The notes under the pieces: generated by a model | What the model saw: only the letters and a program-made list of their open reading frames with translations | Database searches by the model: none | What the model was told of the DNA's origin: nothing | In this document: in pieces, positions 1 through 60,962 of the stretch | Layout of the letters: each line of letters starts with the position of its first letter | Position numbering within the stretch: position 1 is the stretch's first letter | Assembly: GCA_021432655.1 (NCBI GenBank) | Contig: MU271316.1 | Span: 1-64,000, forward strand | Direction of reading: 5' to 3' | DNA from: Atractiella rhizophila | Lineage: Eukaryota | DNA: 64,000 nucleotides | Position numbers and translations under genes: made by a program

Positions 1-750
1 TTACTTGTTCAAGTTGGGTAATGATTATGGAGCAATCGACATTTCAATCAGTTACAATGTATGAGAACAAGGAGCCAGACGCCAAAGGCTTGAGAGGGTA
101 TTGACATATGACGAAATGAGCCAGTAGTGTCTCCCGTAGACAAACATGTCCACCGCTTCAGCTACAGCGAACTCTCTTTACAATCAACACCATTGCTCTC
201 CACCTTTGCAATTTCCATATGAATGATATATCACTTCCGCAGAGGTCCTCAAGCTCCACATGCTTCCCTTGAAAATGTTCCTGCAAACCACCCTCATCAT
301 TGCATGTTTTACAATATCGCTCACATTTATGTTACAATTACTAAAAGATGTAAAAATTGCAAGCGGTTCAGAATAGCGTAACAGGCGCCTGTCTTCCTGA
401 AAATTTCAGCAATGATCTTGTTCATTGGCACTAAAACCGTTATTGATCATCTGTTTATCGTCATATTTCACCATAAGGATTCAAAACAAGGGCTTTAATA
501 GCTCACATTTGTTCAATCATTCTTAACATATTTTCATTTTAATGGTATTACTATTAAACGTCTACATCATCTTGATCATTTGTCATACATTCAAGTTTGT
601 ATATACCCCAAATTGATTCTACACAATTGAGCCCCTCGCTTGCGAAAGTATACATCCAATGCATGCACTACTTTCAGTAGGGTATCAATCTATCCATGTC
701 TGTCGCCAATCTTTAACGGCTGCCTGGCCGCGTTTCATGAAACTATGGTT

Positions 751-36548: not shown

Positions 36549-37116
36549 TAGGACGCGGTGCTCAGCGCTGGAGGAGGTAGCGTGATTAGGGCACTTACTC
36601 TCATTGTGCTACTTCAAGAGTTTATAGAAACTCGAGTCGGATGGTATCGAGAGGCTGGATGGACGGACGCTGGTGAAAAGTGGTTGGTGGAGAAAGAGTA
36701 GCAGGCATTCCTTTAAATTTGGAATAATGATCCCTTAAGCGAGAGGAGTATCGGAACCGGAACACGGTCAGATACTGTGGGTGATTCAGCCAGTCAGACT
36801 CAGCAGTTGCAGGTCAGGCTGCAGTTGTGCAGTTATGCAGGCAATGCAGTATATGTTCCGAGTCTACAATACACGCTAAACATGTCAAGTTTTATTTTTT
36901 AAGAGCCGTAGCATCAGCATTGGCGCCATAACCCAATCTCGTTTCAGCGATCAACAATGCCAAACAGAAGGTGTTTATCCCAATGCAATCGATCTCTTTG
37001 TTCTCTTTTTGCCTTCGCCCTTATCTCTTCGTTTCCCTTTCCCCCTTATCCCCCTCCCTACCCTTGCTATCCTTGCGGCCTTACCATCCTGACTTATCCT
37101 TCTTGTCGCTAATGCC

Positions 37117-38901
37117 ATGGGCACATCCGAGAATGTAGCAAACGATTACGCCCAATGGGCATCATCCCTCCAACTCCGCCTCCAGAACCTCGACCTCTGG
37201 TCTCTCATTCGTCCTTCATCTCCTCCTCATACTCGTCAGCATGATAGCCAACAACACCCAGACATGAAAGCCAAATGGGCACAGAAGAACGTCCAAGCGC
37301 GCACTCTCATACTCGACAACCTACCGCGCTCGTTTGCTTCCAAAGCGTGCCAGCTTCCTGACGCCAAAGGCATCTGGGAGGCTGCACGGGAGGAGTATCA
37401 GGTGAAAGGACGTGAAAGAGAGATGGGGACGGAAGGGCGGATGGATCGTTTGAGAAAGGCGTGGGAGGACAAAGGGGTTATCGATCCGTCTTCCGCTGAC
37501 CAATTGGACGCGTTCGTTGCCTCCCGCCTTGCGCTCAAAGAAGGCATCAACAGCTCCATCTCTGAGTCTGCCGCCGGCACCATCGTCCAGCCCGTTACGG
37601 ATCAGGACGTAGCTACTTCGCTGCTGGACGCTCTTCCCGATCATCCTCCCTGGTCCAACATCCGTTCCCTCTTCCAATCCTCCACAGGGACTCCATCTCT
37701 CGATCTCTCCCTCTCTTCCGTCCGCACCGCCATCCTCTCAGCATCAGCCACAGCCAACCTCTTTTCTCATCCCCAATCTCAGAACCATCTCGCACAGGAG
37801 GAGAAAAAGCGAAAGTTCGAAGAGACGCAGCCGTCGTTGGACACTTTCAGGCAGGACGGCGAGGGAATACCACCCACTCCGGTAACGGGTCAATTTGCTC
37901 GATTATCTTTCGCTCGTCCATCTCATCCTCACCTACGTTCGCGCGAAACGTCGATGAGCGCCGCACTCCAGAGAGATGAAGAGGAAGCCGGATCGGGAAA
38001 GGACAAAGAGAGCGGTTACAAAGCTTCCCTTCCGACAATAAAAGAGAGCACGATCATTCGCCCCCTCTCACGCCCGTCCACCTCCAAACCATCCGAGAAA
38101 GCGGACACAGTCATCGTAAATGGGAAGTCGCATCTCGCATATTTGAGTCGTGACCGCTCAGGATCAGGGATGAGATACCACCCCTACCCTCCCGTCACTC
38201 CCCTTCTCCCGCGTTTCTCTCACTCGTATCCACACCGTCCGTCCGCCCATGCATTCAACGTCAACGTTATCAATAGTAACGGATTTGTGCTCCCGACCCT
38301 TCCTCCCAACATGCCTCAGCCCAAAGGATGGGTCGTCATCCATCCCAATGGCGTCGTTCAATCCCTTCCAAACCATCCCAGACCGCAACCGGCATTTCCA
38401 CCACAACCACAACCGCGACCACATGAGAGAGTGAAGGAAAGGTTGTCGCAACCTGATACCGTCAACGAGAGTGACACGGAGGTAAAGATGGAAGAGATCG
38501 ATATTCCTCCTCCTTCTCTCGAGCGGCAGCGAGGCGGAAAGACGCGAGGAGGATCTTCGCTCGGGAGTCGAAGCGGTAGTGTACGGGACAGTGCTAGCAT
38601 TGGACGATCTACGGAGGCAGAGATGGAAGACCCGCTGGATGAGAAGGGGACGATAGCAGAGTTGTGTGGTTCGTCCCAGTTGTCTTTCTGGAAAGAGCGG
38701 AATGTGATTCGACGCGTGGATACAGACCGTTGTAGACTGAAAGGACTTGGGTGCACCAAGGTCGATGGGAGGAGACAGTGCGAGGAGTGCGAGGAGACCG
38801 CGTTCCAATGCACGTGCGTGCCTCCCGTCCCATTCCCTGCTCTCTAGTTTCGCTCCAGATCCAACAGTCAACGGTGACTTATGTCTTGTCTGACAGATAC
38901 G
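37117..38901 (+). CDS. Copia Gag-like N-terminal domain fused to a C-terminal Zn(II)2Cys6 cluster; 3' end uncertain
   Basis: NDYAQWASSLQLRLQNLDLWSLI, WAQKNVQARTLILDNL, AKGIWEAAREEY and DQDVATSLLDALP match the Retrotran_gag_2/UBN2 pattern. Removing intron 38669-38725 gives CDRCRLKGLGCTKVDGRRQCEECEETAFQC. Confidence 0.8.
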
Positions 38902-40193: not shown

Positions 40194-43100
40194 ATGATAC
40201 GTCTCTACCTCAAATCATTGTCCCTACTTTTCTTTCTGTCTCTATCTTCTCTCGTGCGCGGAGAAGAAGAGCCAGCAGATAAAAGGACAAGTGCATCTCG
40301 AAGGGCAGAGTTTATAATTGTGGGTGTTACCGCACTTATCGTCTGTGCCTTCATCGTGTGCGTTGTTCTGTTCATTGATTCTATTCATACAACTCTTTCC
40401 TGAAACATGGTGAAGACAGGCTTGGCGTGACGGGATATGTGATTGCTGGTGCCTTATCACCCTCCCTTGTCGCCTGCTATCGATTCTATCCTGGCCGTTC
40501 GTCATCGTGGAATGGATTCTCCTACTTCCTCAGGTTATCCTTTGCATTCCTGAGGATCGCCGCTTCAGACTCAGATTTTGGATCAACCCTAGCCCCTCTG
40601 CGAGAAACAACAGAAGATTATATTACATAGAAAACATCATGAAGAAGCTACTCCGTGATCCGACTTATGACTTGAGTGTTTCTGAAAAGCTCCGCTTTAA
40701 ACGGTGAGCCATTCTATTGACCTTTCTCTCCAAAGTGGAGTGTCGACACAGAATTGGCGAGCAGAAAAGTCGAAAGATATCTCCAGAGCACCAATCAGTC
40801 ACATATCGCATGCTTTCGCTCAGTTTGGCTGATCTTCGATCGACAGTTGGATCAACTTTTTCAGGTGCTGTACGCTTTATTGCCTTTTGAATGTTTCCTC
40901 CCACTGTGGGAGCAGAGGACTCGTCAAACCCTCTCAGGCCTTCAAAAAGCGGTTGGACTCCTTGATTATTCAGTGTCGGACCTCGTAAACAGAGATCATG
41001 CTGGCCTTCCAAATACGTTTGAGGGCTGGCTCGCGTTGTGCTGGCAGGGGTCGAGGAGCCGCCGCGCACAGACGGCGGATTTGGACACGGTATGGCCGTC
41101 TCCTCAAATGTCAAGGCCATACTGATCTCGGTTGGAATAAGGTGAAGGGTATGGTCAGAAAATCCCTTTTCTCTAAATCGTTTCAGGAAGATGGAAGGAA
41201 GGGGATCAGGAGCTCAATTCTCAAATGGTACCAGAAAGAAATGGGAGAGGAGGTGGCAGGACCCGAGAAGAGCCACTTAGACGACTTACCGTACCGTTCA
41301 ACTCGTTGCAAGAAGGGAATGGAACAAGATAGCAATCTTCTGATAAGATGTGCTACCCTTTGCCGTGCGTTTATTTCTTTCATCAGCATCATCGGAATTG
41401 TGTTGATGCTGCAGCAGTCAATATTGATGCTCCGTCGCATACCATCTCCTACGACACCCTTCTGTCCACTCCTATCCTCAACCATGAGCGCTCCATTCCA
41501 CAGCAAGCAGCGGAAGAACGTATGGAGAGGGTTTCTTCATTATTTAAGGATGTAGAGGCAATGGGAGAATGGAAGGACCAGATAACAAGCTTGAAGGATC
41601 AGGTCCTACCTCTTTCTATTACGTCAAGTCTCGCTGATAGGTGATACAGTTGATCTTGATTTGCGCGAAGAAAACATTGCAATCACATGCCCCAGAGAGA
41701 TTACAACGTTCACTTTCAGCGGGTAAGGGAGGAGATGAAGGTCTGCTTATCGCCTTGGTACTGGTTAGAGGAGCTAACGGACGATGAAATAGACGTCAAG
41801 CGCATCCTGGATCTTGTCAAGCTCGTACCCGACCCCCAAGAATGTGAAGCCGCAGTCAAAGTTATGGCACAGTGGATCTTAACAACAACTAAAAGAAGTC
41901 GAGCGGAGATAATACAAGGCAAAGTTGCAGAAGCTTACAATGTTGAGGCTGAAGAGGCACCCACCCCATCGACATTCGTCGAGCGCACGGTTGCCGCTTT
42001 GAACGCCATAGACGTAAAGGTGACAACATTAGGGGAAGGTCCATTCTTTGCTCAAGTTACAGATAAGGTGGCATTTTTCGTAGGGGTAGTAAGCATGCAC
42101 TGACACCTTGTAGGCATCGACGGAGCTTGTAAACATGACAGACGGGGCAGCGAACCTACTTTCGTCATACATTGACGCGGCCTTGAGGAAGCGAGGGAAT
42201 ACATTACAAACACCTTCACTTGACGTCAACGATGTGGTTGGGATTTTACCTCTTACAGGATAATGCAGCAGCTAAATTTCCATCTAGTGGCGAGTATTTT
42301 CTTTCCTCGACGCGAAGGATATCTTTCTCGAGCTGCACGCTCGGCTGCTTGCGAGGAGGATTATGAGATTCGAATTCAAGGACGAGGGGAAGGAGAGAGA
42401 AATCGCTCGACTTGTTTCAGGCGAAGTGTCAGAGTATCAGGGACGAAAGATCTTGCGAATACTTGCAGGTGCCGGCATTCTGGTGACACAAGCCTTTCGC
42501 TTGACTTAATTTGTTAGTAGATGTGGACTCTTCGAACGCATTGATTGGCCGATTTAATCACGAAAAGAAGTCCAGAATCGGTTTGTCCCTTTCCGCCGAA
42601 AACAAGTCTATAGGTCAAATTGTCCTCGCAGCTTTTAACGCCATCGTCCTCTCTGCTTCTGTGTCGACTTTCACTCTATCGGAGACTGATGGCATCAAAC
42701 TTCCCAAGGAGCTTGAACCGTTACATGACGAGTTCAATGAATTTTTTGCTAAGGATCAGCGGTAGGTTTTCGTTCTACGCGTTGAAATGAAGCTCAAAGC
42801 TCAATGCGAGGCAGGGGTAGGAAGTTGACACACGTGCTCCATCTTTCAACCGTAGAGCTTCAGACGCGATTTACGAATGAAAAATACACAATCCATGCGT
42901 CCCTCCCCCAGGCCGCCATTCTCCTTCTCTTCACCCTAGCCAGGACAACTGCCACCCTCGCTATAATTGCGGAAGAAGTAGGGTTGACGGAGGAGGCTGC
43001 GAAGCCACTCCTGAAGGGACTGGTCAAGCAAAAGCTCTTACTGTTCGATGATGAGGAATTTCATCTGAACCTCCGTGAGATGTTCCTCAGTTGAAAGCGC

Positions 43101-43609
43101 CAACAATGTTAATTTTCTCTGCTCAGAGTATTGCAGCACAAGAGTTCGAATACCCCTTCACCGTCTTCATGTGGGCAAGAATGAAGAGGAAATATCTACG
43201 GCAATGAGGCAGGTCGATAAAAGTCGACAGCTCATCATTGAGGCGGCAGTGGTTCGGTTTGTCGCTCACCTTCTCCAGTCTTGACCTCCTTTGATTCCAT
43301 CATTTTCGTTAGGGTGATGAAGTGCTCCAAACAGCTACCGCGACAAGATTTGCTGAAGGTCTGTCTTATATTACATCAGTTATGGGTTAAGTTCCTCTGG
43401 TGCAGGACACAATCAGCGCTGTCCACGGCCACTTTAGGCCGACTGATGAGGATATCAAACACGCTATTAGAGAACTAGTCGAAAAGGAAGTCTTACGGGA
43501 GATCGATGGAGAACCTGCGAAATACGCTGTGAGTCACCGCTGCTTTGCTTTGTCTCGGTTCCAGTAGTCTGACAAGCGCCGAACGCCGAATGGATAGTAC
43601 GTCGCATAA
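40194..43609 (+). CDS. Divergent Cul1-like cullin with N-terminal signal-peptide-like and hydrophobic segments (copy A)
   Basis: Cullin motifs ANLLSSYIDAALRK, EDIFLELHARLLARRIM, LPKELEPLHDEFNEFF, GRKLTHVLHLSTVEL, QAAILLLF, IEAAVVRVMK and LVEKEVL...YAYVA*. The 5' exons encode MIRLYLKSLSLLFFLSLSSLVRG and FIIVGVTALIVCAFIV. Confidence 0.85.
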
Positions 43610-43920
43610 CTTTACAATATTCTCACACAGGAAGTTGGGACTTGCTGAAGCACTTGCGGTTTATGCGCATCATGTACCATTTTACTTGTATTTGAATAGT
43701 TGCATTCACTAGATTGTTGTTGTAAGTAACACTGGGCCACCTTTCTATCTACTGACACTCGCAAGGAGGACAACAATGTTCTGTAACGAACACTGGTGAC
43801 CAACTTATGACGTCACCCGTCTTTCTTTACCTTCCCAAGTTAAAACCGTCTTCGAATCTGTGATCATCATCAACGAACCACTTTACAGTATTCCCTCAGA
43901 GATCCAGAAATTCATCCCAT

Positions 43921-44275
43921 ATGCCCTTGATTCCCCAAATCGTCAAAGACGTCGCCGGTATCTCGTCCAGTACAAACGATCCAAGCCATCCAGTTGCTCC
44001 CACCGTTACCATTGTACCTATCAATTCTAAATTACCCGATGGGAAAGCATTGAATCCTCAGTCTGAAAACGCGGCGGATACTGTGGAGTTTCCTGAACCA
44101 GTCAAGAGTCGGGATTTGGATTTAGGAGGACCGCTAAAGGAAATGGAGGGCAGGAAACCCTAGGTTTGTCCTCTGTTCTTATCGGACACAATTGGCGCTC
44201 AGCGCTCTTCTTACAGGTCTCCAGAGACGCAGTGATGGTTATGGTCTCCTCTTGCGCCACATTTGATCTTTAGTC
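43921..44275 (+). other. Possible 5' exons of an unknown gene, with a decayed duplicate at ~47994-48205
   Basis: 80-aa ORF followed by a GTTTGT...TACAG intron-like segment; aligns by eye with 47994-48205. Confidence 0.35.
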
Positions 44276-44870
44276 ATGATGAGAAATGATCTTAAAGTAC
44301 CCAGCGTAAAAGGCAAATCTGAAGGTCGGATTGATGCCCATAATAAAGAAGAAACACAAGTACAAAGAAGAGATTTACTCTGGTTATTCTGAGCCTTTTA
44401 AGTTCCAACTGGCCCGGTAAGAATTCAACAACAATCCAAAAAAAGCCCAACAACCCTTCAAATTGGAAGTCCAATTGGAAAACCAACCCCCGGGTCAAAT
44501 AAGGTTTGGAAGGGGAAGGTAAGGCCCAAAACAAAGGAAAAAAAGCCTGGAAAAAGCCCAAAAAAAAAAACAATTCAACAAAAACCCGGCAAACGTGGGC
44601 CCCCCCAAAATAAATAACCCTAATCACACGGTAAAGGCTCCGTTTCAAGGATGATATGCGCATGCTGTGGCGCCACAGTGCCCGCTGAGCCAGCACAAAT
44701 CGGACAACGACCCTCCCGTTCCCAAACTGAATCCAATGTCGATACGAATGTGTGTGTGTGTACGCTTGCGACCTGGCAATGCGCCGCGTCATTCGCCGCT
44801 CAAGTAGATAATCGAGTATTCGTGATATAGGTAAACTGGGTTTCATGGAGTTCTATGGAGTTTCTACCAC

Positions 44871-46166
44871 CTAAAATTGCGACTGGAGTTCGTAGACTCC
44901 ATCAGAAGGGGCTTCTTTGACCTAGAAAAGGTCACATCACTCAACATGATTCTAACAAATTGAAGAGAAAGGTTAGGTACCCATTCCGAGAGGATCGACA
45001 AAAGGTTACGAAGGAAGTCTTTGAGGGTGCGGTCCTTCTTCCGTTTCTGGTTCTCAACCACGCTCACAGCATAGGTCCATTCATCTTCTTCTTGTTTCAC
45101 CAATCCAAAGATCCAGTTCTCACCATCGGTGAGACAAAATTTCAGTTGACTTAATCTGAATGCCATCAATGAAGAGCTGCGATTGACTGCTAATATGAAC
45201 AAAATACGTACTTCGCAGACTTTGCGATTACCAGGGCCTGGCCGATAACTTCTGGAAGGCAGTAGCCCAATCTGGAATCCAGACGCTTTGCCTCCGTGAC
45301 AAATAAGCGAGCTTTCGCAATGGCATACACCAGGTCATAAGGCCTAGCGTTGTTCGCATCCAGAAGTAATGCTGTGTGAAGTCAACAGGTCAGCCGTTCT
45401 AGCTTTGAAGTGTAACAGACTAACATTTCACAACGCCGTCCTGGGCTTGAGAATCATATTGAACAATCAAATAGTCAACTTTGCCACTCAAATAGAGGAT
45501 ATGGCCTGTTTCTCTGTTTTGGAATGGAATACCTTTATCAGGCCCAGGCACCTTTTCAGGTAGGATCGCGATATCGAGTTTACCCTGGTGGGTTATTCTG
45601 TACAGGGAAATGAAAATGGCATCGATGATCGTTCGTGACCCTGCTTCAAACTGAAAGACGTCGCGTACAATAGGGCGAAGAGACAACAAAACACTAACCT
45701 CCATGCTGAAGCAGCAATGAATTTCTTCCAACGAGCGTACCAAGGCATCCGATTCTTTGTCCAAGTCGGGAATGCTCGCTGCAACCTTTTTAATCTGATC
45801 GTTTTTAAAAACCAGAACGCCTGATGACTTTACGCCAATGGGTTCCAGGTCTTTGAACTGGAGAGATGAGAAAGCTATCTTCTGGAGATCGGCGAAATCA
45901 AAAAATAAATAAAATAAAATACAGCGTCTACAAGCTGAGGAATACCTTACTTTTTTCGGAGCTCTCTCTAGCAAGGCTTCTAGTATCTCGATATCATGCT
46001 TAAGTTGAGATATTGCCGTAGCTGTCTCTTCGATCCCTTCGAGATCCTCCTTCACACTGTTTAGACTTTGCACCAGGGATCTCATCTTGGCCAGGTCAAC
46101 CGTGGACTCTTCCAAACTTCTCCTACCCCTTTTGTAACCTCTTAGCGCTGCATTTGATGGAGACAT
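44871..46166 (-). CDS. Coiled-coil + PD-(D/E)XK restriction-endonuclease-like (Crinkler-REase-type) protein
   Basis: EAGSRTIIDAIF...LSGKVDYLIV...LFVTEAKR...EVIGQAL...FCLTDGENWIFG, split by short introns. Confidence 0.65.
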
Positions 46167-46818
46167 GGTTGTCGATGGGTGCAGACGACAGTTTCAGCCT
46201 TGGATGATGAAGGAGGAACCTAATACCAAATGTTAATGATCCCCTGGGGGACAACTGCGAAAGTACTTCCATTCATCTATTATTCACTCATTTTTACTGT
46301 AATTTGTTTCCATGAGGCTTTATTATTGTGCAAGGTCCTGCACTGATGTTTAGCGGGACTCCTTCTTGCTTATGAGCTCTTATGTGAAACAACCTCACCT
46401 AGTGAGTCTGAAGCCTTTATCCACACAAAGCGGCGCTGTCAGGAGAACTCACCTACCAGACATATGGGAACCCTCTCGTATTCCCTCCTACAGCGGTGTT
46501 AGGGCAGACACTATGTGCGGTTGCTGATGGCCATGCCTCTGTAGTGGAGATAATCCGAAGGGCATGATATGACATGAAGACTAACCTGTAGTGGAGATAA
46601 ACCTGAGAGAATACTCTAAGGTCACCTCCACAACACTCTGATCTATATACAAGCGGAATAACATTGCCACAGATGACAAGATCATATGCCTCCTCCTTTC
46701 GCCACTCGCGCACTTGCACATTTCCACTTTCATTGAGTGTATTCTGGAACTGTGGCAACTTTTCTTTTGCCACAGGGATCTTAGCTATAAAAGCCTTTCA
46801 CCTGCAAGTGCGAGACTC

Positions 46819-47235
46819 ATACTTATTTGTTATCTCGCACTTCGCCGGCAATGCAGTTTCCTTACATACTGAATGCAACAAATACTTATTTGTTATCTCA
46901 CACTTCGCAGCACTTGCACATCCATCGACAGTGTGTAGAAGAGAGCAGATGAAACATGTAAGAGAACTAAAAGGGGAAAGTGACAGTGGGATTACGCGGG
47001 GTTAAAAAGAAGAGAATAGACACAATTGGGTGCACAGTCGTCCGTTTGCGGCTAAGTGGTGATGCAGGCGCAAATGGGTGAACGGGCGACCGGGCGCCGA
47101 TTTGCACACGGACAGGAGGCGCAGAGTGGCAACGGGAGACGGATTTGTATAGAATGCAAACGGGCGAACAGGCGCCGATTTGCGGGGAACGCAAAAGGGC
47201 GATAGGAGACGCAATCTGGTGAACAGGCGCCAGTT
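46819..47235. repeat. Short degenerate direct repeats
   Basis: ATACTTATTTGTTATCTC(G/A)CACTTCGC occurs twice (~46819, ~46882). A GGCGCC(G)A(G)TTT-containing unit occurs three times (~47093, 47171, 47226). Confidence 0.6.
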
Positions 47236-49026
47236 TACATAAGATGCAAACCTGACAAGCGGTTCCCATTATACATCTCCTCCACATATGACTGCACACA
47301 CTGTACGACTGGTGCTTATCATGTCCCCAAAGGACCAAGCCCTCAACCAAATCCAATCCTACATTAACGTCGTCTGGTAGAAGTACGAGTGCATGCCAAA
47401 GCACATACACCTCAACAGAGGAACGGAGTATGTAAACAAAAAGTCAAGGGAGCCAGTACGACTTAGTTACGTTAATGTGACCATGTTCATGTTAAGGGCG
47501 GCGACCAAGCTCTGCACTTGGCATTGGGTGGAAAGGTTACTATGATGTTCTGGACAAGCTTAAGTTCCATGCATAAGTTCCATGCATGTGCAGCTCGATG
47601 GAGACCAGCTCGCACTAAATAGAGTCGAGAACAGTGTCTCACTGCTCACTGGATGAAAACTGGAATAGCTCATGGGAGAGATAATTGCCAACTGTTCCAG
47701 GGGCAAAGATTAGATGTGTCAGTAATGAACACGAATGAAAGCGGTGCAAGCACAAACCTCACAAGTGCCACAAGGCTGCCCCCCTCAAAGTGGTCAGACG
47801 GTCAAGTTTCCATTCTGGGCTCCCCAGATGCATGAGGCATTTCTCCCAAACATCTCCACGGCTTATGCCTGGTGAGGCATGAGGAAAGATTGGCTGATAA
47901 CGATTAAATGGCTATTTCAAGAATAAGTTGGATCAAAGGCTACAAGGCACACTAGAGATATGGGCAGCTACTATTTACAAGAGTGTATGTGTCCCCCACT
48001 GTTACCATTGCACCTAACACTTAGCCAAGGAGGGAAGTGGGAAAGCATTGGATCCTGAAAGTGCGGCAGATACTGTGGCTTTTCCTGAACCTGTCAGTAG
48101 TACCCCCTCACATGATGTGAAGAGGATTTGGATTTAGGAGGACAGGAAACCCTTAGTTACCTGCATCGTTGGACACAGGCGCACTCAGAACCCTTTTTGC
48201 AGGTTGGGCAGAGGTCAAGGATCAGACTTGTCTACTTACACCACATTGTTAGTAATTCTGCTGTCATCAGTGTAAACAAGGTATAAAGGGGAAGCTGGGA
48301 TCTGGATAGGTGTCTGTAATGACTGACGAAAAGGCCATTCAGCCAGTCCAATACCATAATACTGTTGAAGATGTGTAAAATGTTTGTAATACTTTCTTCA
48401 TGAACATTCTGGAAGTTTGTATTTGCCACAGCTCTCATGTATATAAAACACATGTTCTTGTGTTGCTGCTGCTCATGTGCTCAACCAAACATAATACATT
48501 TGTCTGAAATTAACAAAGCAGCAGAGAAAAACAACAAATACCCTTCAAGAGTCAGACTCCAACCAGTATTTAATTTATTGGCGTGTATGGAGCACCATAG
48601 TAATGATCCCAGAATTCTGTTTTGTTATGCATATTCACCTTGAAGCGCCTGCATTGTATGCTGAACTGCCTCAAGCTCGATATCTCACAGATATTGTGGA
48701 AATCTAACGAGTATGTGATCTGTTTAGCTGATATCTACAGGCAGTCTAAAGGGTAGTACATAACCTGATTCTTCTGTGAGCATAGCAACGTTATTGTGGT
48801 AATCAACCTTAAAGGATTCGGATGTTCAATATAAAGTGAGAAGATGCCGCGGTCCTCAAAACTTCCCCATAACCAATAATCAATGAAGAATGATTTTTGA
48901 GCATTTCATTTGCATTTCACAGCTCGAATACTCTGAATCCTGGTGGGTTCGGTGTGGGGGTGGGTCTTGGGTAAGTTCATAAAAGCACAAATCCCTAAGG
49001 TGGTACCTGGTCATTCAAATATCATC

Positions 49027-50609
49027 ATGGTCATGTTACCCCCCCAACCATTATTCCTTTGCCTCAGTTTGTCTTTCGTGCGCGCACAAAAAGAGGCACA
49101 AAACAAAAGCGGAGCTGACACTGGTACCATTGTCACTTTCTGCATCAGTGCACCAATTGTCTGCTCTTTTTTGGTAATTTGGTTTAGGTGCGTGCTTGCT
49201 TAAATTTATGTTCCGATCCATTGATCTCATTCAGACATGAGCGAAGGCATTGCTGGAAAGCTTCCTTTGGTAATTGGCGGCCCATTATCACCTGCATCAT
49301 CACTCCATTCTTGCCTGTTATATTTGGAGTCATTATCGCAGAAAGGATCCTTCTGGTGCTCCAGATAATCCTTTGCAATCCTGAGGATCGTCGATTCAGC
49401 TTCAACCTCAGCTCCGGGAACGGTAACGGATCGAGCAATAACGGCGAAAGATTTCATCATATTGAACATGTCATGAAGAAGCCACTTCGAGATCCTTTGT
49501 TTTACCTTAACAAAGGTGAGAGGTTGCATTTTAAAGGGTGAGCGTCAATGTCTCTCCAAAGACTGCTGAAACGCAGTTGCTATCAGTCAAGTCGAATGGC
49601 ACCTCCAAGGATTCAACCACCCGCGTGTAACTTGCTTTCGCTGCGTCCAACAAGCCTTCGATGGACAATTGAACCAGATATCTAAGATCCTGCTGCGCTC
49701 ATTGGATTCCAAAGGGTTCCTTGTACAATAGGAGGTGAGAACTCGTAGAGCCCTTTCAGGCCTTCAGAAAGCCGTTCAAATCCTCGAGTATGTGGTGGCC
49801 GACCTGTACATCACGGCGATGCTAGCCTTCCAACTGGGTTCGAAGAGTGGCTGACATGCCAGCATCACGCTGTATGCAATTCTCTCCCACAGGGAAAACC
49901 AAATTGAACTATTCACAACCAGTCATTGAAGCAGATGCTCCAAGTCCAAGACGCTCTCTTCTGCACTTCGCTTCAGGAAAGTTCCGGAAATGGGATCAGG
50001 AGCTCGATTCTGAGATGGTATGGTGAATTCATTTGAATTTGCGTGGGTCCCACTGCATTTGAAAGCCCCAGCTGATAGCTGTTCAGAATTTACCAGCAAC
50101 AAGGTCAGAATACCACTTCACCGAGAGAACACGGAGAAGGATGAAGAGTACACACTGACAATGAAACAAGCCGATAACAGTCGATTACTCGCCGTAGAGG
50201 CAGCCGTGATTCGGTTCGCAGTTCATGTCTCAACTTGTCATCTCATTGAATCTGATCGCTTTTAGGGTCATGAAGAGGTCTCGACAGCTCATACTACAAA
50301 ACTTGGTGACGGCGGGTTTTATATTGCAACTTACACGGGCTAATTGCCCTCTAACTCAGGACACCATCAGCTCTCTGCAAGGCCAATTCAAGCCTGTTGT
50401 CGATGATATCAATACTGCCATCAAGATGCTCGTGGAAAAGGAAATATTGAGCAAGATGAACAGCGAACCTGAGAGATTTGCTGTGCGTCTCTCCTTTCCA
50501 TATGATCGTCGTGGCGTGGTATAACTCCACAACCTCGGCGGAGATTCTGGACCTGTGAAGCGGCACTACCCAGTTTACGTGCAGCATTTCGCGCCATATT
50601 TGCGGTTAA
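49027..50609 (+). pseudogene. Internally deleted cullin paralog (copy B) with the same signal/TM exons
   Basis: Same exon layout as copy A. TAG at 49729-49731 replaces a Trp. The sequence jumps from IRSSILRWY (~50020) to the EFHLNL-equivalent and retains VEAAVIRVMK. Confidence 0.85.
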
Positions 50610-51766
50610 ATTGTTGCACTCCTGCTCTCACGTCGTTGTCAGGTACTGAACTTGTTTTTGATATGGTTTGTATGAGTATTTGCAGTATCAACGGCGTATC
50701 ATTTGGCCGTGTAGGTGATGTCCTTGGAATATGACTCTACGTTACTGCTATTATACTTCGTTGGCTTGTTGATGAGTACTCGGAGCTACTTCTCGTTGCA
50801 ATCGAATAATGCCTATTCGGGTGCCTTGTACATTCTCTTTGCGAGGAACTCCCACAATGGGTTATCAGCCATCCATCCACACAGTCATGGCAATTAAACA
50901 ATTCTTCTGCGGTGAGGAAGTGAAGCTCTAGTTCAAGTTGATTCGGAGGGGTACGAGAGAGCTAGACTAAGAAAGATGTACCTCACCAAATCACGGTGGT
51001 GGATATGTATGTAGTTATTGGAAGAACTCAGAGGATGCACCGAATAGCCTTTCAGGAGCGATCGAAGTTCATTGGAGCCATTCATTAAGGAGTCCGCGCC
51101 AAATGCTCTATCTCCCGAAAGCTGGATCAATCTCCCAATGACACCTGCTGCATTTTAGATGGAAGGCTTGGAGCCTGACGCGCGACGGCGCTTGATTTTA
51201 TGGTATTGGCGCAGATGACTGGTTGTTGAGTGGTCTCTGGGACGACACGGTACAAAGGATGTGCAATTTCTATCGACATTCGGATAACTCAGAAGGTAAG
51301 ATAAGGTCGATTTGGTGATGGGGATAGGATCGACTCTGGTTCAACGCTCGGACCTTTGACAGGAGACTGATGCAACAGATTTCGTGCCTGTCATCAGCAT
51401 TTCGGTGTGATCCCTCCGTATTGAGGAGTCACGAAGAATACATTCATTCTCGGAAAGGGCATGTCGATTGTTCCCATAAGGGTTGATGCGGCCTTCAAGC
51501 TGGCGCATCGTGAAGCGAATCCAGAATGTGAACCTGGTAGGATAGCGCAGAGGACATATGACTTCCAAGGGACGAAGAATGGAACACGAATATTTGAAGG
51601 GTTGGACTGAGTGGGTATAATCTGCCTACAACCTTTTGGGCATGTTAGGGGAGGGAACAACAAGAGATAGATGGCTTACTATTTACAAGAGTGAATGCGT
51701 TCCTCGACCTTCTTTCACTCCGAATCAGTAAGCAGGTTCAAAAAAACATAACAAGAATGCATACAT

Positions 51767-52754
51767 CTATACCATCCTCTGCGTCTGGATATGAATCTCC
51801 CTCTCCACCTTTGCATCCATATCCATCGTCTCCTCCTCCTTTTCCACTCTATTCGATATCCTCACATCCCCCTCCAAACCACTTGAGAACCTAAGATCTC
51901 TCTCCTTCGTCTCCCTCTCCCAACCCTTCAGCCTGCTCAATACGCCTTCGAAACCGACCTTTCCAACCTCTGCATTTTTCTCATACCTATCCAAACTGAA
52001 CCTCTCCACCCTCTCCCTGACCATCTTCGTGCCGACTAAGTTCCCACCGGCTCCAGCCCGCACGTCAGCGATGGTGTGGAACCGCGTCTTTTGGTCTCCC
52101 CTCGGCGAGTACGTGATCAGTTCCTTCACGGCGAGGATGGACGCCATGGTGATGTTAGAGGAAGCTTGGATGATGCTCGGACGTTGGACCAGCGGTGAAT
52201 TGTCCGGCGTGGAGTCAGGTGGTGGAACGGGTGGAGGATGGAGCGAGACGAATGTGACTTCTCGGATGAAGGCTTTCTCGGAAGAGCCGAGGAGCTGGCT
52301 CAGCAAATGGCACAGTCAGTAAATTGAGTCAGGTTAGACAAGAGAGAGCTCGTAGTGTCTATCAATGCGACAATTTGATATGTCCATAGAACGTTAACTA
52401 GTTCTCTGGCAGGCCACAGCAAGTAACAGAAAATGAAAAATGAACAGCGGTCATCAGGACTCAAAACTTTTGGGAAAGAAACAACGATGGAAAACGTACC
52501 TTGACGATCCACCTCGGCGCACTCTGTTCTACCCCGATCAACCTCTCAGTCCTCAGTATGCCCGTGGGCAGCATATCCCTGGAGAGGACGTCGACGCTGA
52601 TGACATGAGGGGAGGATGGGTTCGGATACTTCTGGAAGAGTGAGTAGGCTACGTCTGGGCATAAACCTAGTGAGCTCTAGTAGGATGCAGAGCAGAGGGA
52701 ATAGACAGTACGATGGAAGGGATATCCGTATTCCACTGTGTTTGACCACAGCAT
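51767..52754 (-). CDS. PRELI/MSF1 (Ups-family) mitochondrial lipid-transfer protein
   Basis: KYPNPSSPHVISVDVLSRDM..GILRTERLIGVEQSAPRWIVK...SSNIT..SIL.VKELITY...ERFSLDRYEKNAEVGKVGFEGVL. Confidence 0.9.
52324..52464 (-). ncRNA. Candidate intronic box C/D snoRNA (~140 nt)
   Basis: The minus strand reads TTGAG-TC-CTGATGA ... CTGA-CTCAA: C box, D box and terminal stem in canonical spacing, inside a ~200-nt intron of the PRELI gene. Confidence 0.65.
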
Positions 52755-53616
52755 CGCTCTCTATTAGTTGTCTACGTGTTGGATGACGTAACAACATTCT
52801 CTCAGCCGTAGTTCTAATCGAGTAATCCGCGGCTTGTGCAGCATGCCGCTATTATGACTCACGTATACTATTTGGGTCACCACGTGACAATCATAAGTCC
52901 TTCCATCTGTGCAGCTTCATAAAGCTGCATGACGCACTTGTAAAGTACAGAATGACGATCTCAGATTGCTCGATTGGCGGGTGAGATTCTGCGCTTCCAT
53001 CGCTGCCTCGCTTCTGGTCTCAATGGCGTTCTCTTCCGTCTCGCGTCACCTTGTCCAAGGCGCTTTACTTCGTTTTCGTGATGGACATGATTCACATTCT
53101 TTTTTGCTTGCAAGTTCACGCGAGTGGAACAACGATCAGCCTCTCACTCCCTCACTTGATCTTCACGTTTTTCTCAAAACAAGCAGAAGTAAGCGACTGT
53201 GCAATTCGCGTCTTCCCCATCTGACCATCGATCCGAGGCCCATCGATCGATATAATTACTCTACATAGGACTTCCAATCGATTTCATCTCCCCAGGTTCC
53301 CGTTCCGAATCGGTGTCAAGCACGCCCCCCGCGCGTGTCGTACCCCGCCCACTCGCTCGAACTCGCTTCTCAATCTATTCGGGTCCATTGTGACGTTTGG
53401 CACTAATTAGCTGGGCCGCATGCCACCTCGACGTCCGCCAGAGGAATTGCAAACGTTACCGCGAGCGCACGCGTGCACTCAACGAGGCAGAGGCGGCCGC
53501 TACTGTACATTCGTCTTCCCCAGCTTCCCCAGACCCCATAAAAAAGGCACCTTCCTCTTCAATTGCCTCTCTCAGGCTTAGAGTGAAGCTGCTCCAAGTC
53601 GAAAAAAGATCACAAA

Positions 53617-56600
53617 ATGAGGTCCCTCTCCCTCGCTCTTGCAGCTGCCACCGTTTCGGCGTCACACATCGACTTGACGTTTGGACAGCAAATCCAGTCG
53701 AGGAGTCTAAACACGACCAACGGCAACATCACCTCGCCCAACTCTGACGGAGGCATACTCTGGAAAGACGCTCATGCGAGGGCAAAGAAGATCGTGGCTC
53801 AGTTGACTGTCGAAGAAAAGGTCGGACTCGTCACTGGACAAGTCGGCAGATGTGCTGGTAACCTGAAGCCAGTTGAGCGATTAGGCATTGGAGATATTTG
53901 CGCGTACGCTCTCTCCAAGTCCTCTTCAAACAGGCTGAGCTGAGACGGCAACAACAGTCAAGATGGACCAGCAGGAGTTAGGCCGACGACTGGTGCGCTT
54001 CCGTTCTTCCCAACTTGTGCTCGATTTTCGACTCTAATGCGCTCGCTCAGGTGTCACTCAATTCCCTGCAGGCGTGACTATCGCGGCAACATGGAACGTA
54101 AGCCGTTATTCTCTTCTTTTCGCCTTCATACTGACCGTTCCCCTTGCAGCGAGACCTCATGTACAAGCGCGGAAAGTACATGGGGCAGGAGTTTTACGAC
54201 ATGGGCGTAGGTATCGGTACGTTCCTTCACCCAACCACACACGGTCGAGGTTGACTGAATGCCATCCAGCCCTTTCCCCAGTCACTGGTGGCCCTTTGGG
54301 ACGCAGTCCTTGGGAGGGACGCAACTGGGAGGGCTTCTATTCTGACCCGTACGGTGCGTCCACATCCTTGTTCTTTACCTTGAAAGTTCAACGCTGATGA
54401 GCTGGTCACAGGTACTGGCGTCGCTGCGTACGAGACCGTCACTGGCATGAGGAGCTCTGGGGTCTTGACGACCGCCAAACATTGGATTGGGTTTGTTTTC
54501 ATTGCTCCACCCGTCAGAGCCCACGTTGACGAAAATGCAGGAATGAGCAGGTACGAAGGTACAACCATCAAGTGACATTCTTAATTCCTTCATCAGGAAA
54601 CCTACCGCAATCTGTTCAACGCTACCGCGTCGTACTCTGTATTCCCCGCATCAGGCCAGCTCCCCATATCGGCCAACATTGGTGCGACTGCTCTCTTCCT
54701 CTTTTCCTTCATCGTTTAAGCGTGTGCGACAGATGATCGTGCCATCCACGAACTCTACATGTGGGGATTCGCTGAGGCCATTCGAGCGGGAACGGACTGT
54801 GAGTCTTCCCGCTCGTGTACCAACCTCTGTCCTCATTCGGCATGTAGACGTTATGTGCTCTTACAACGAAGTCAACAACACCCACTCTTGCTCCAACTCG
54901 TACTCCCTAAACGTGAGCAGTCTCTCCCATCCCGATCCTCCAACCTGAAGCACTGCAACAGGGCCTGCTCAAAACTGAGCTCAACTTCCAGGGCGCCATC
55001 ATGTCCGACTGGGGAGCCGTGTAAGCAAATCCTTCGATCCTCTTCCCTGACTAAGGAAGATGACGCTACTTCTTTAAGGTGGAGCGACGAAAATGCTCAA
55101 TTCGTCCTTGGCGGATGTGACATCGTCATGCCTGGATATAACTGTAATGCTCCTTCCGCTCTATCCTCCTCCGCTGATTCAGACATGAAGATGGCGGATC
55201 GCTCGGTTCATTCTGGGGCAACGTCCTCGTCGAGCAAGTGAACAACGGCACTGTCCCACAGGAGCGTATTGACGATATGGTTTGTCTCCAAGCCTGATTT
55301 AGCTCTCAATGGGCTCACGGACGATGACCAGGTCATAAGAACTCTCACTCCGTGGTACGCGAGCGGTCAGGGCGACAAAGCTGTCCCTCAGGTCCCCTTC
55401 AACGCCGTGGATAATCCTGGCTTTCCCGTTTCGTACAGGAACGTTCAGAAATCAGACACACCCGATCTCGTCAAACAGATTGGCCTTGAGGCGCACGCTC
55501 TTCTGAAGAACCAAGGAGGGTTGCCTCTGAAAAAGGGAATCCAAAGCGTACGTTCTCTTCTGCGGAAAGACAACCCTGGGTGATAAGAGGTATAGATTGC
55601 CGTCATTGGAAACGATGCCGGCTCCAACTTTTTGGGACCTAGGGGATGCGGACCATTCAACGATGCTTGCCCTATCACCAACCCCAATGGAACGTATGTC
55701 AATCCTCCTGAACCGCTGTCGGCGAATACTGATGACCCTGTAGCATGTCCATCGGAGGAGGTTCCGGCGCTGTTTGGCCTCACAATCTCATCACACCCCT
55801 CTCCGCGATTCAGTCCTATGCTCAACAGACTAACACCTATGTTGAGTACACCCTCAACAATACCAACTTGGACCGTGTCACTGCCGTGCGCTGCCGTTCT
55901 GCTAATTGAGGACGGTGCCTAACAAAAATGTTACCAGACTGCTGCAAGTGGCGACGTTGCACTCGTCTTCGTTAATGCCTACGCTGCTGAAGGCCAGGAC
56001 CGAGAGAATTTGGACCTGTCTGACAACGGAGATGCCATCATCAAGGCTGCTACCGCAGGAAACAACAACACAGTCGTCATCTTGCAGTACGTCTTCCGAA
56101 TATTCGTGAAAGACTCCTGCTCATTCATTATGAAGCATTCCGGGACCCGTGCTGTTGGAAGAGTGGATCGAAAATGACAACATTACCGCCGTCCTTTGCT
56201 CCTTCCTTCCTGGCGAACAAAGCGGAAACTCGCTCATCCCTATCCTTTTCGGAGACGTCAGCCCCAGCGGAAAGCTCCCATTCACTTTGGGCAAGAGTGT
56301 GGATGACTGGCCAGTGAGTAATCTGGCTGCTCTGCCAAATACACGTGTTGATTATCGCCCAGCCAAACACAATTGTCAAGGATCCGGTGTACGCCCCTCA
56401 AGCCGACTTCACGGAGAGGTCTGTCCTCCTTCTTTCTCCGTCCCCAAACTCATCTCAGCGACCTCTGCAGCTTGAAAATCGATTACCGCTGGTTCGATTC
56501 TAAGGGTATCGAACCCCGCTACGAATTCGGATACGGTCTCTCTTATTCTTCTTTCTCCTACTCGAACATCAAGCTGCAGAAGACCTACAAGCGTGATCAG

Positions 56601-57016
56601 AAGGCACTCCAGAGGACCGCCGAGCCTTTTGTTGGGGCAGATGGTTACAAGTCGCTCTACGACATCATCGCAGTCGTCTCAGCTTCGGTTACCAACACAG
56701 GCAAGTACACTGCTTCAGAAGTTGCTCAACTCGTACGTCCCTCTCCTCCTCAGTGTACTTTCCACTCACTAGCAATTTGCAGTACGTCGAATTCCCTGAA
56801 TCGGTCGGAGAGCCACCGAGGGTACTTCGAGGTTTCGACAAGCTCCAAAATCTGTCTCCAGGATCCTCGCAAACTGCATCCTTTGAGATCACCATCAAGG
56901 ATGTTTCCATCTGGAATGTGGTGAAGCAGGCTTGGGAGATTCCTGACGGAACCATCACCTTCCACGTCGGCGCATCTTCACGTAACTTACCTCTCAAGAC
57001 CTCCACTGCCTTCTAA
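53617..57016 (+). CDS. Secreted glycoside hydrolase family 3 beta-glucosidase (many introns)
   Basis: Signal peptide MRSLSLALAAATVSA; LTVEEKVGLVTG, DGPAGVR, GRNWEGF, KHWIG, VMCSYN, nucleophile motif IMSDW, PSGKLPFT, IDYRWFD, YEFGYGLSY and an Fn3-like tail. Stop at 57016. Confidence 0.97.
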
Positions 57017-57637
57017 AAGTCAGAATTTCCCACGGTGTCTCATGTAATTACTAATCCCCTCGCGCATTTTTGTGACTAAGAAACAATGCATCCCCCTCAT
57101 ATCCAGCTTTCCCGTCTCATTTGTACTTCCGATTTTGCAGTTTCCCTCCCTTAGTACAATCAACACGCAGGAAACCCCACTGTATCGGCAGCACATCCAT
57201 GGCTCGGTTTCCATTCCTCTCTCGACTCATGCGAGGATTTTCCATTGATAGGAGTAAGACTGGCAGACTGAGAAACAGGATCGTGCCTGAGATAGTGTAG
57301 AGCCTAAAGAAGAAAATGGCCCCAATCCTGGAAAAAAATGGTGCAAACAAAACAATGAAAATTGACAGTTGCAGGAAGTAGCTTAGGTTATCATGAAGAG
57401 ACAGGAAGCGAGCGTTCACATGTTCTCGCGAATGCGGACATGCGAGCAGGAAAAGGTCTCGGTCAGAATGATTGTATAACAAGGTATGCAATGTTAATTA
57501 CACAATCGGTTGAGTACATACAACCATTCAAATACAAGTAAAAATGCTGCAATGACACGCATCAAGCATAAACGGGATAGTGGGGAAACTGACAATGCCT
57601 CCAGCGGGTCTCAAGTTCGCTATGTGAAACACTCAGG

Positions 57638-60600
57638 CTACGCCACGTACTACCCAACATGTCACTTAGAATGGGATCAAGCCCAATTAGAAGGAAGAGG
57701 GAGACACACAGCATATTTCTCAGTCTCTCCATCAATCTTACTTAAGAATTCCTTTTCGACCAACAATCTAATTGCTTTATTGATATCCTTGATAGCAGGC
57801 TTGAATTGGCCGTCGAGAGCCATGATCGTGTCCTGCACGAGGTAGCATTAAGCTCATGCCTGATGCAATAGAGCACGCACCGTCACCAAGTTCTGTCGTG
57901 TGAGCTGTCGGGAACACTTCATCACCCTGAGGGAAATGCATGGGAATCAACGAGATAAGTGATAAACGGCGCAACGAACCGAACGACCGCTGCCTCTATG
58001 GCAAGGGCTCGACTCTTGCCAACTTGCTTCATTGCCAGCGATGCGTCATCTCCATCCTTGCCTGTTTTGAAGCGGTGAAGTGGTATTCGGATCTTCTTGC
58101 TGATGAATTCTGAGCGACGATTAGCATTGGCGTGACTTTCGAAGTTGGAAGGGCTTACGGAGGTTCAGGCGAAATTCGCCGTGTTCGAACAGTACAAGCT
58201 TGTGCTTGACCAGCACCTGGAGGAGTGGTTTCGCAGCCGCCTCCGATAGTCCTACTTCGTTCGCAATTGTAGCGAGGTCGGCACTTGTTTTGTCGTCGGC
58301 GAAAAGGAGGAGAATGGCGGCTTGGGGAACCGATGCATGAATCGTATACTTGACATTTGTAAATTGCGTCTCAAGTTCTACCGTTGAAAGATGGAGAAGG
58401 TGTGTCAACTTCCGTCCACTGCTACCCAGTGAACTTTACTCCCGGCGCGGTCACAAAACGCACCGCTGCTCCTTAGCAAAAAATTCTTTGAACTCGTCGT
58501 GTAATGCTTCAAGTTCCTTGGGAAGTCTGATGCCTTCAACTTCGGATGGAGGAAAACATGATACAGAAGCAGAGAGTACTATAGCATTAAAACCTGTGAA
58601 ATGACCTCAATCCGTCTACTTGCTCCCAGTACAAGAAGATGACAAACCAGTGTTGGACTTCTTCTCGTTGTTGAACCGTTCAGCCAATGCGGCTGAGGAG
58701 TCGAGATCTACCGAAAGAAACTCACCGCGTACATTGTAATATGACAAAGCGCTACCTGCAAGCATTTGGATGATCTTCCGCCCATGCTCTGATTTCCCTC
58801 CTGAAACCAATCGGGCGACTTCCCTTTCCTTCTCCTCATGCATACATTCAAATCTCACGATCCTTCTTGCCAGTCGTCGACCGTGAAGTTCGAGAAAGAC
58901 GTCTTTCGCTTCCAGGAAAGAGTATACTTGTAACTAAATGAACTCAGCCAACCATGTTATGCTGGAAATATGAGGAAGACCCAACCATACGGTGGACAAT
59001 GTCATCAAGTGAACCCTCTAGTGGGTCTTCTTGTTTCCTCAGGGCGTCGTCAATGTATAACGAAAGCAAGTTCGCCGCCTGAACTGTTGTGTTGACGAGA
59101 TGTGTTGAAGCCTGCGATGTATCAGCAGTGCTTACACCCAAGGAGGACACCACCTTATGTGTAACATGATCAAAGAAGGGACCTTCCCCTAAAGCTCTCA
59201 CATGAAGGGGGACGGCTTTCAAAGCAATGACAAGGCGTTCGACAAAGGATGTGGAGGCGAGTGCGTCTTCGGCGACGTCTCCAGCAGCAGTATGTGTCGC
59301 ATTCTCCTCTTGATTTCCCATAATAACCTTCGTCAAGATCCATTCGGTAATGACCGTGACTACAGCTTCACATTCTTCGGGGTGCGGCAAGAGTTTGACA
59401 AGATTCAGGATGCGCTTGAGATCTAGGTCATGGCCCATCAGCACTCCTAATACCGCTCAAGGCAATAAGCTGACCTTCCTCCCCGTCCTTCCCTGCTGTA
59501 AGCGAACGCCGCAATCTTTCTGGGTCAGTCGATTGCAAAGTTTTCTTTGCCACGATCAGAAGCAGCTGTACAATCTGTTAGCGGCGGCACCGTATAGGGA
59601 TGGAGAGCAGACCTGCTCCTTTAGGCTTGTTATCTGCTCCTTCCATTGTCCCATCGCCTCCTCGTCTTCAAACAACGCAAGGACTCTCCTCTGACGCGAC
59701 TCCGCCGCTTCTGGTGGAATCGATCGCTCATGGTTGAGGATAGGAGTAGCCAGAAGGGTGTCGTATGAAGAGGTGTTCGACGGAGCATCAATATCAACTA
59801 TTCCAACATTAATGCAATTCCGATGAAGCAACTACACGTACGACAAAGGGTCGCACATCTTATCAGAAGGGCACGGTCTTGCTCGAGTCTTCTTTTGTTC
59901 CTCCAACCCGGTGACAAGTACGGCAGATCATGTAAGTGGCACCTCTCCCGTTCCACCACATCCTCTCTCGTCTGCTTTTGGTACCATTTGAGAATCGAGC
60001 TCCGGATTCCGTTTCCATCACTGTCCTGAAGCTGAGGAGAGAAAAGAGTGCTTTTGACCATATCCTTCGTCGACTGGTTAAGACCAAAGGTCATACAAAT
60101 TGAGTCAGTATTAAAGAAACGAAGCATGCATACCATATCTTGACTCCACCTCAACCACTCCTCGAACTTTTTTGGAGTCCTAGAAGACCCTCTATCCACC
60201 ACATCCGCCATAGAATAGTCGACGAGTGCAGTCGCTTTTTGAAGACCTGAAAGAGCTCCACGACTCCTCTGCTCCCATGATAGAAGGAACGATTCCAAGG
60301 CTAATGAATGCAACGCGCCACTAGCAAGGCCCTTTAATTGAGTATTCAAAGCTTCCCAAACCATATCAAAGAAATCTGTAACCCAACAGTACCTCCCAGT
60401 AAACCTTTCAACCTTCCTTTCACCCATTGATGTTACTATAGTACCTCCAGATATGGATACAGAGGCTCACGTCTTAAAGCGGAGCCTCTCAGATGCATCG
60501 AGATCATACGATGGCACACGAACTAGTAGCTTCTTCAAAACCTGTTCTACGCCATAAAATCTTCTCTTATTTCTCGCAGATCGGCTGGGGTCAAGCCAAA

Positions 60601-60962
60601 ACCTAATGTTGAAGCGACGACTCTTGGGAATACAGAGGATGATCTGAAGAAAAAGTAGGATCCATTCCACGATGTTGAAAGGCAAGCATAACAGGCGACG
60701 TAAGAATCCGATAGTTTGGTGCCAACGATCACTGCGGTCCCTTTGCCCTTGTGTTTCAGCAAAGAGCTCCAGGGCTGGACATGCACACAATAACTCACCA
60801 GAAAATAAAACAGCCAATGATTACTATCCAAATGCAGGCACCAGAGATAAACCCAACTAATTGCCCAGTTCCCAGATTTCTTTGCTTCCCTTCCTCCGCG
60901 AACACTGCAAAAGAAAGAGACAGAGAGAGAAGCAGGGATACTTTGAACTGGCAATGTGTCAT
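57638..60962 (-). CDS. Divergent Cul1-like cullin with N-terminal signal-peptide-like and hydrophobic segments (copy C)
   Basis: Begins MTHCQFKVSLLLSLSLSFAVFA-EEGKQRNLGTGQ-LVGFISGACIWIVIIGCFIFW. Then ANLLSLYIDDALRK, KDVFLELHGRRLARRIV, GRKLTHLLHLSTVEL, KKIRIPL, IEAAVVRVMK and LVEKEFL...YAYVA*. Confidence 0.88.

Follow-up and report, generated by a model that had tools for sequence, protein, structure and literature searches.

The window analyzed here, a stretch of 64,000 nt at the start of contig MU271316.1 from Atractiella rhizophila (assembly GCA_021432655.1), consists of intron-rich eukaryotic DNA and harbors three related cullin loci, hereafter referred to as copies A, B, and C (Table 1). 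Copies A and C very probably (probability of about 0.7) encode full-length cullins with a predicted membrane anchor at the N-terminus. The largest class of ubiquitin ligases is built on cullins as soluble backbones, and to our knowledge every described cullin reaches membranes through partner proteins. The predicted chain of A and C would run from a signal-peptide-like segment through a polar stub, a transmembrane (TM) helix (TM1), a second hydrophobic helix, and a basic linker into a Cul1-like cullin. Of these features, one continuous reading frame, a body with the identity and fold of a cullin, and a conserved neddylation motif were shown. The best joint explanation, which we consider clearly probable, is that A and C are one-chain anchored cullins serving as membrane-resident cullin-RING ligase (CRL) scaffolds and that B is a dead or truncated copy. 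The first-pass annotation of the window had described a three-gene family of cullins; A and C did prove to be full cullins, whereas B was found to be decayed and the family to comprise at least eight loci. The peptides quoted in that annotation, its start codons, and its six intron coordinates for A, B, and C were all reproduced from the window sequence.

The gene model of copy A was built from contig pieces of RNA sequencing runs, the public protein P0001, and a purpose-written spliced aligner. Homology between A and C extended over the whole length in tblastn searches, spliced alignments, and the models. All 15 introns in C were of the GT..AG type, with positions and phases identical to those in A, and 871 and 852 open codons were kept across these introns at approximately 50% identity. 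In A, the intron 41365-41417 was backed by an RNA contig of run X2, the intron 41741-41792 by a contig of run X3 together with a loose end in run X1, and the intron 43075-43126 by run X3. Further, record 18 of run X3 carried 45 unlisted letters between 43255 and 43404, which matched the micro-exon encoding the neddylation motif.

The model of A showed no mismatch to the NCBI protein P0001 over all 705 residues of the latter. P0001 stands for A residues 130-871 and is identical to them except for a gap of 37 aa; the model of A is thus longer by 129 residues at the N-terminus and by 37 inside the chain (A 262-298; window 41090-41246), the latter being present in paralogs and backed by RNA depth. 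The NCBI model of C (P0004) contained only the last 434 aa, spanning 57638-58930, and had an intron-derived start. The public protein models of A and C therefore look wrong, the anchor having been missed in both, and the public model of the paralog P0002 also begins past the anchor.

The hydrophobic exons were found in the reading frame of the cullin in A and C, joined to it by two phase-2 introns in the spliced models, as the first-pass annotation had claimed. A start ATG, an open frame, and GT..AG introns of phase 2 were kept in all three window copies. The six introns flanking the anchor exons of A, B, and C were 47-61 nt long, four of them beginning with GTGAG and two with GTGCGT. A purine was present at position -3 of all three start codons, and an in-frame stop preceded them by 9 (A), 30 (B), and 13 (C) codons, without an intervening in-frame ATG. 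Exon 2 of A formed one open frame beginning just past an in-frame stop, without any ATG before the annotated one, which means that translation through its conserved part has to start in an exon farther upstream. Over the 69 aligned codons of exon 2 upstream of the annotated Met, A and C were 55% identical, as compared with 51% over the next 112 annotated codons. Differences between A and C in this upstream part were distributed over codon positions 1/2/3 as 26/15/30, a pattern of the coding type. The second hydrophobic helix of A contains the motif ..ILCIPEDRRF, and a motif around I-L-C-(I/N)-P-x-x-R-R was common to A, B, C, and the independent paralog P0006. In addition, a public model from another contig (P0005, 776 aa) combined a signal-peptide-like start, a TM helix (hydropathy 2.26), and a cullin in one protein.

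The public annotation starts A at the ATG at 40639, inside exon 2 and equivalent to A residue 130. If this start were right, the cullin would be a soluble protein and the upstream exons would be 5' untranslated region or a separate upstream open reading frame (ORF). The same M-K-K start was used in the NCBI models P0001 and P0002, the internal Met was present in A, B, P0002, and P0006, and the structural model of P0002 from this Met already aligned from Cul1 residue 27. However, C has a Leu at this position, and use of its next Met would remove the first helices of cullin repeat 1. The equal protein-level conservation upstream of the Met, the coding pattern of codon positions, and the frame kept open across two introns in three copies also argue against the internal start. 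Moreover, scanning ribosomes would reach the ATG at 40194, which is in good context, before the annotated one, and the latter is no more than the ATG that comes first in the contiguous ORF. We regard a start at the internal Met as the sole start of the protein as quite unlikely; this conserved Met could possibly give soluble isoforms as well.

RNA data were consistent with transcription from upstream of the annotated start. Run X19 behaved as a transcriptome, with at least 15 joints, all listed ones of which were present (13 GT..AG, 1 CT..AC, and 1 TT..AT). Its contig depth was 36.3 at five places on A, from 41462 to 43180. In four successive bins of A, the exon model predicted depths of 30.6/29.1/26.9/25.3, and 30.6/29.0/27.0/25.4 were observed; under the NCBI model of A, the first bin was predicted to be 24.9 as compared with the observed 30.6. 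On the assumption that a single RNA contig covers the gene, the first bin requires 500 covered nucleotides, which places the 5' end of the contig at approximately 40149 if both N-terminal introns are spliced, and in any case no later than 40268, which lies within exon 1 and puts the end 371 nt or more before the annotated ATG. Exon 1 of A thus appears to be reached by a fully spliced RNA contig. Contigs of run X19 also covered part of C, at a depth of about 8.5-12.

Several observations weigh against an anchor and a cullin in one chain. Exon 1 was weakly conserved (33-43% identity between copies), and its A-C differences were distributed flatly over the codon positions (25/25/28). Neither anchor-exon junction of A (40357|40416 and 40703|40765) was seen among the joints listed, and splicing of exon 1 to exon 2 rests on sequence and the single-contig depth arithmetic. 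Five of the seven public family models begin downstream of the anchor, and P0006 begins inside the second hydrophobic helix; the signal-peptide-like stretch together with TM1 was present only in P0005 among the seven, and P0005 is without the second hydrophobic helix.

The body of A and C is a complete Cul1-like cullin. Both Pfam domains expected of it were detected above their curated cut-offs in P0001: Cullin (PF00888) with 151 bits (cut-off 33.2; profile positions 170-602 of 620) and Cullin_Nedd8 (PF10557) with 55.6 bits (cut-off 36.9). The profile match starts at position 170, and cullin repeat 1 was not recognized by Pfam in P0001. The neddylation motif V-R-x-M-K was nearly invariant over 102 aligned cullins and occurred as VRVMK in A (Lys815) and C (Lys796).

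The paralog P0002 (53-56% identity to A) served for the structure tests. Its AlphaFold model, calculated with 102 aligned sequences, had a mean predicted local distance difference test score (pLDDT) of 89.9 and a predicted template modeling score (pTM) of 0.80. By VIA-align, residues 1-735 of this model were superposed on residues 27-776 of human Cul1 with a Z score of 33.8 and 667 aligned residues. Foldseek gave full-length matches to Cul1 and Cul2, and full-length structural alignments were obtained to Cul1, Cul2, Cul3, Cul4, and Cul5. In sequence comparison of P0002 with solved cullins, Cul1 scored 131 bits (5e-37), followed by Cul2 (117), Cul4B (83), Cul3 (72), and Cul5 (60); Cul1 was the top match by both sequence and structure, though with small margins over Cul2. 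Three cullin repeats, the cullin-homology domain, and the WH-B domain with the VRVMK lysine were all present in A and C, and the protein of A ends with Y-A-Y-V-A.

The hydrophobic segments were evaluated by Kyte-Doolittle hydropathy, with a 19-residue window for TM1 and the second segment and an 11-residue window for the N-terminal stretch (first 30 aa). This upheld the TM-like and second hydrophobic segments reported earlier for A, B, and C. TM1 formed a hydrophobic span of approximately 19 or more residues in A, B, C, and P0005. Of the 159 collected proteins, four had a 19-residue peak of at least 2.2: P0005 and P0006 from the family, and two unrelated, N-terminally truncated singleton models (only two of 152 after subtraction of the seven family models P0001-P0006 and P0153). 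Judged by eye, the hydrophobic region of the signal-peptide-like stretch ended in V-R-G (A), V-R-A (B), and V-F-A (C), followed by polar or acidic residues. The polar stub between this stretch and TM1 comprised 12-16 residues. The second helix was conserved and proline-bounded, with about 17-19 hydrophobic residues and polar residues at i and i+7, and the second segment as a whole spanned about 35 residues in A and B. The helix was followed by R-R-F in A, B, and C and by R-R-L in P0006, and basic residues also preceded it in B and C. A basic linker of about 20 residues separated the hydrophobic extension from the first cullin helix. AlphaFold modeling of the N-terminal part (P0006, 12 alignment rows) gave no usable structure (mean pLDDT 44.6).

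Because of the basic residues around the second helix, both of its ends were read as cytosolic, which would leave the cullin in the cytosol. Two features weigh against this reading: the flank after TM1 in A is not net positive, and the length of the second helix would suffice for a membrane span, which would put the cullin in the lumen. The protein might then enter the secretory pathway with its second helix as a true TM span, or with its anchor cleaved, and the cullin body would lie in the lumen or outside the cell with a role other than that of a ligase. The length of the hydrophobic stretch, its proline boundaries, its hydropathy peaks of 2.06-2.56, and the extended segment of A and B fit such an arrangement. 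On the other hand, the helix is flanked by basic residues on both sides in C and B and on its C-terminal side in all copies, and the neddylation motif and the C-terminal residues of cullins are conserved as in working cytosolic cullins. The lumen is not known to contain ubiquitin or NEDD8 machinery. A lumenal or extracellular cullin is therefore considered unlikely, and a cytosolic cullin behind a membrane anchor is preferred.

Copy B differs from A and C. The first-pass annotation had counted it among the cullins, but its Trp codon at a conserved position has become an in-frame TAG, a frameshift lies near 49808, and a large internal segment is deleted. The equivalent of about A residues 290-755 (approximately 470 residues) is lost, with a change of frame at the junction near 50030, and the C-terminal tail is unrelated and does not contain the conserved Y-x-Y-V-A. 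B showed weak transcription, with a run X1 contig lying on 49277-49536 and ending one base short of the predicted donor, and with a run X19 joint at 50211/50265. By its disabling lesions, B is assigned as a putative pseudogene, i.e., a dead or truncated copy encoding no cullin. A 202-residue anchor-only protein could still be produced from it.

The clear breakage of B raises the alternative that the whole family is duplicated DNA decaying beside transposons and that A and C are non-functional as well. Several public models are fragments (P0003, P0004, and P0006), and a 584-codon frame with a copia-type retrotransposon gag domain was found at 37093-38844 (+), approximately 1.3 kb upstream of A. 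Yet A and C keep long frames open over 15 introns at about 50% identity, a fully spliced RNA contig covers A, and contigs lie over part of C. Decay of the entire family is thus highly improbable. The copia-type gag ORF may be linked to the spread of the family.

The family comprises at least eight loci, represented by seven named protein models and B. All seven models (P0001-P0006 and P0153) are named Atractiella rhizophila and come from contigs of six different lengths, and five of them (P0002, P0003, P0005, P0006, and P0153) are paralogs on other contigs. A HMMER search against 1.84 billion cluster representatives returned 2738 proteins at E values up to 0.001. Besides the query, only three of these were family-like: P0004 (1.4e-143), P0005 (4.3e-135), and P0006 (5.7e-47). 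The next match was an ordinary cullin (6.3e-40), 31% identical and aligned only in the C-terminal half. P0002 and P0003 were obtained by a word-based search and P0153 by a cluster look-up. The claim of a lineage-specific family was borne out in that the family-like HMMER matches and the look-up all led to Atractiella rhizophila; the sequence searches support a family that has probably expanded in this one fungus.

Further searches, with the anchor exons or a family profile, gave no relatives. A metagenome scan with a profile of the anchor exons yielded 369 pattern matches and one with a family profile 165 matches, with no relative among either. Exon 2 of A had no match among 74 candidates when searched against longer proteins, Pfam produced only chance-level matches on the anchor exons (E of 0.09 or more), and the ESM Atlas returned no usable match to exon 2. 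Two cullin-like proteins with a hydrophobic start were examined as possible precedents and rejected: P0094, a rotifer protein in which an unrelated domain is fused at the N-terminus, and P0102, a contig protein. Both are singletons that are N-terminally truncated and without cullin repeat 1; they are unrelated to the family and look like gene-model artefacts.

As for the rest of the window, no RING, Skp1, BTB, or F-box domain was found among its 82 ORFs of at least 110 aa and 62 further ORFs of at least 55 aa. The region between A and B (43435-47436) was transcribed, with a depth of 38-179 in run X19, and its open frames had no Pfam match. A glycoside hydrolase family 3 (GH3) gene with GH3 C-terminal and Fn3-like domains and many introns of approximately 50 nt was located at 53900-57100 (+); its contig depth in run X19 was about 1000, compared with about 36 for A. 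Within this gene, contigs of runs X1, X2, and X19 skipped 102 bases at 54491-54594, with TT..AT ends and six other letters instead, which could stem from a difference between strains, a problem in the assembly, or an intron boundary set at the wrong place. Large ORFs at 6780-11103 (-) encoded Patatin-like phospholipase, nSTAND1 NTPase, and TPR repeats, an architecture resembling that of fungal NOD-like receptors (NLR). ORFs with DUF4139/DUF4140 and with a PRELI-like domain were found at 18775-21072 (-) and 51770-52315 (-), respectively. A run of 25 N at 2692-2716 marks an assembly gap.

Table 1. Features of the three cullin loci and hydropathy of their N-terminal segments. Nucleotide positions refer to the window and residue positions to the protein models.
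Feature	Position	Strand	Basis or remark
Copy A: predicted anchor and full-length cullin, 16 exons, 871 aa	40194..43609	+	Spliced model without internal stop
A exon 1: start codon, signal-peptide-like stretch, short polar stub, TM1	40194..40357	+	Sequence, hydropathy
A intron 1: 58 nt, phase 2, GTGCGT..AG	40358..40415	+	Predicted only
A exon 2: second hydrophobic helix, then a linker (about 20 aa) and the start of cullin repeat 1	40416..40703	+	
A intron 2: 61 nt, phase 2, GTGAGC..AG	40704..40764	+	Also used by the NCBI model
A micro-exon: 46 nt, neddylation motif VRVMK, Lys815	43313..43358	+	Model and RNA
Copy B: decayed paralog; anchor exons 1-2 intact, remainder broken	49027..50609	+	
B in-frame TAG, exon 3	49729..49731	+	Trp in A, C, and P0002; closes a 202-codon ORF
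B remnant of WH-B/neddylation domain, joined to N-terminal part	50087..50482 (about)	+	Sequence comparison
Copy C: predicted anchor and full-length cullin, 16 exons, 852 aa	57638..60962	-	Paralog-guided spliced model
C exon 1: start codon, signal-peptide-like stretch, TM1	60799..60962	-	Sequence, hydropathy
C exon 2: second hydrophobic helix and linker	60471..60740	-	Leu123 where A has the annotated start Met
N-terminal stretch, 11-residue peak			A 2.40; C 2.31; B 2.21
TM1, 19-residue peak	A 36-60; C 30-57; B 32-54		A 2.45; C 2.56; B 2.36; P0005 2.26
Second segment, 19-residue peak	A 67-101; C 70-94; B 68-103		A 2.06; C 2.15; B 2.56; P0006 2.34

Among the closest known counterparts of the body is Cullin-1/Cdc53, the scaffold of SCF (Skp1-cullin-F-box) ligases (PDB 1LDJ and 1U6G), with which the family shares the full-length fold, the Cullin and Cullin_Nedd8 domains, the VRxMK lysine, and the Y-x-Y-x-A C-terminus. 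In contrast to Cullin-1/Cdc53, the family has an N-terminal extension of about 120 residues, carrying the signal-peptide-like stretch, the TM helix, and the second hydrophobic helix, and at least eight paralogs in one genome. Its similarity to other cullins is confined to the C-terminal half, at about 30% identity.

Ubiquitin ligases embedded in membranes include Hrd1 and Doa10/MARCH6, which are not cullins but integral-membrane RING E3 ligases whose membrane-embedded chain carries its own RING. The proposed arrangement would resemble them in that a ubiquitin ligase is fixed in the membrane with its catalytic part in the cytosol, whereas here the membrane protein would be a scaffold needing a separate RING subunit. 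CRLs also act at membranes when recruited by partners, for example by lipid-modified or membrane-bound F-box or BTB receptors or by viral Vpu with beta-TrCP. In these ligases, which are alike in that a cullin ligase works at a membrane, a soluble cullin makes contact through a receptor or adaptor, whereas in the family described here the anchor would lie within the cullin chain.

In agreement with the first-pass annotation, which knew of no described cullin with its own secretory-pathway anchor, a phrase search of one literature library for transmembrane or membrane-anchored cullins found no paper. A looser search found only soluble cullins that act on membrane proteins through partners. Among the matches listed, papers naming Atractiella rhizophila were community or taxonomy studies. 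The anchored-cullin architecture is present in one public model annotated as a hypothetical protein (P0005), and no description of it was found.

Based on the predicted segments, the N-terminus of A and C would insert into a membrane of the secretory pathway as a type I anchor or, should the signal peptide stay uncleaved, as a two-helix hairpin. The second hydrophobic helix may lie in or on the cytosolic leaflet, so that the cullin would be cytosolic. Cullin repeat 1, the adaptor-binding end, would then be held within about 20 residues of the bilayer, and the distal C-terminal domain may recruit the RING protein Rbx1/Hrt1 and be neddylated. The outcome would be a membrane-resident CRL for membrane or membrane-proximal substrates, a mechanism that is plausible. 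We give even odds to the broader proposition that these are the first cullins found to be integral membrane proteins and form a lineage-specific, multi-copy family of membrane-resident CRL scaffolds with the receptor end within about 20 residues of the bilayer.

The public gene models are corrected by this analysis, with the anchor and 37 internal residues added to A, the anchor to P0002, and the missing half of its length to C. If the proposed architecture is true, this root-endophytic fungus would possess ligases all of its own that act on substrates in membranes or the secretory pathway. An anchored cullin would show that the scaffold itself can be membrane-resident, and it would provide a natural system for the effect of fixing the receptor-binding end at the membrane on the choice of substrates.

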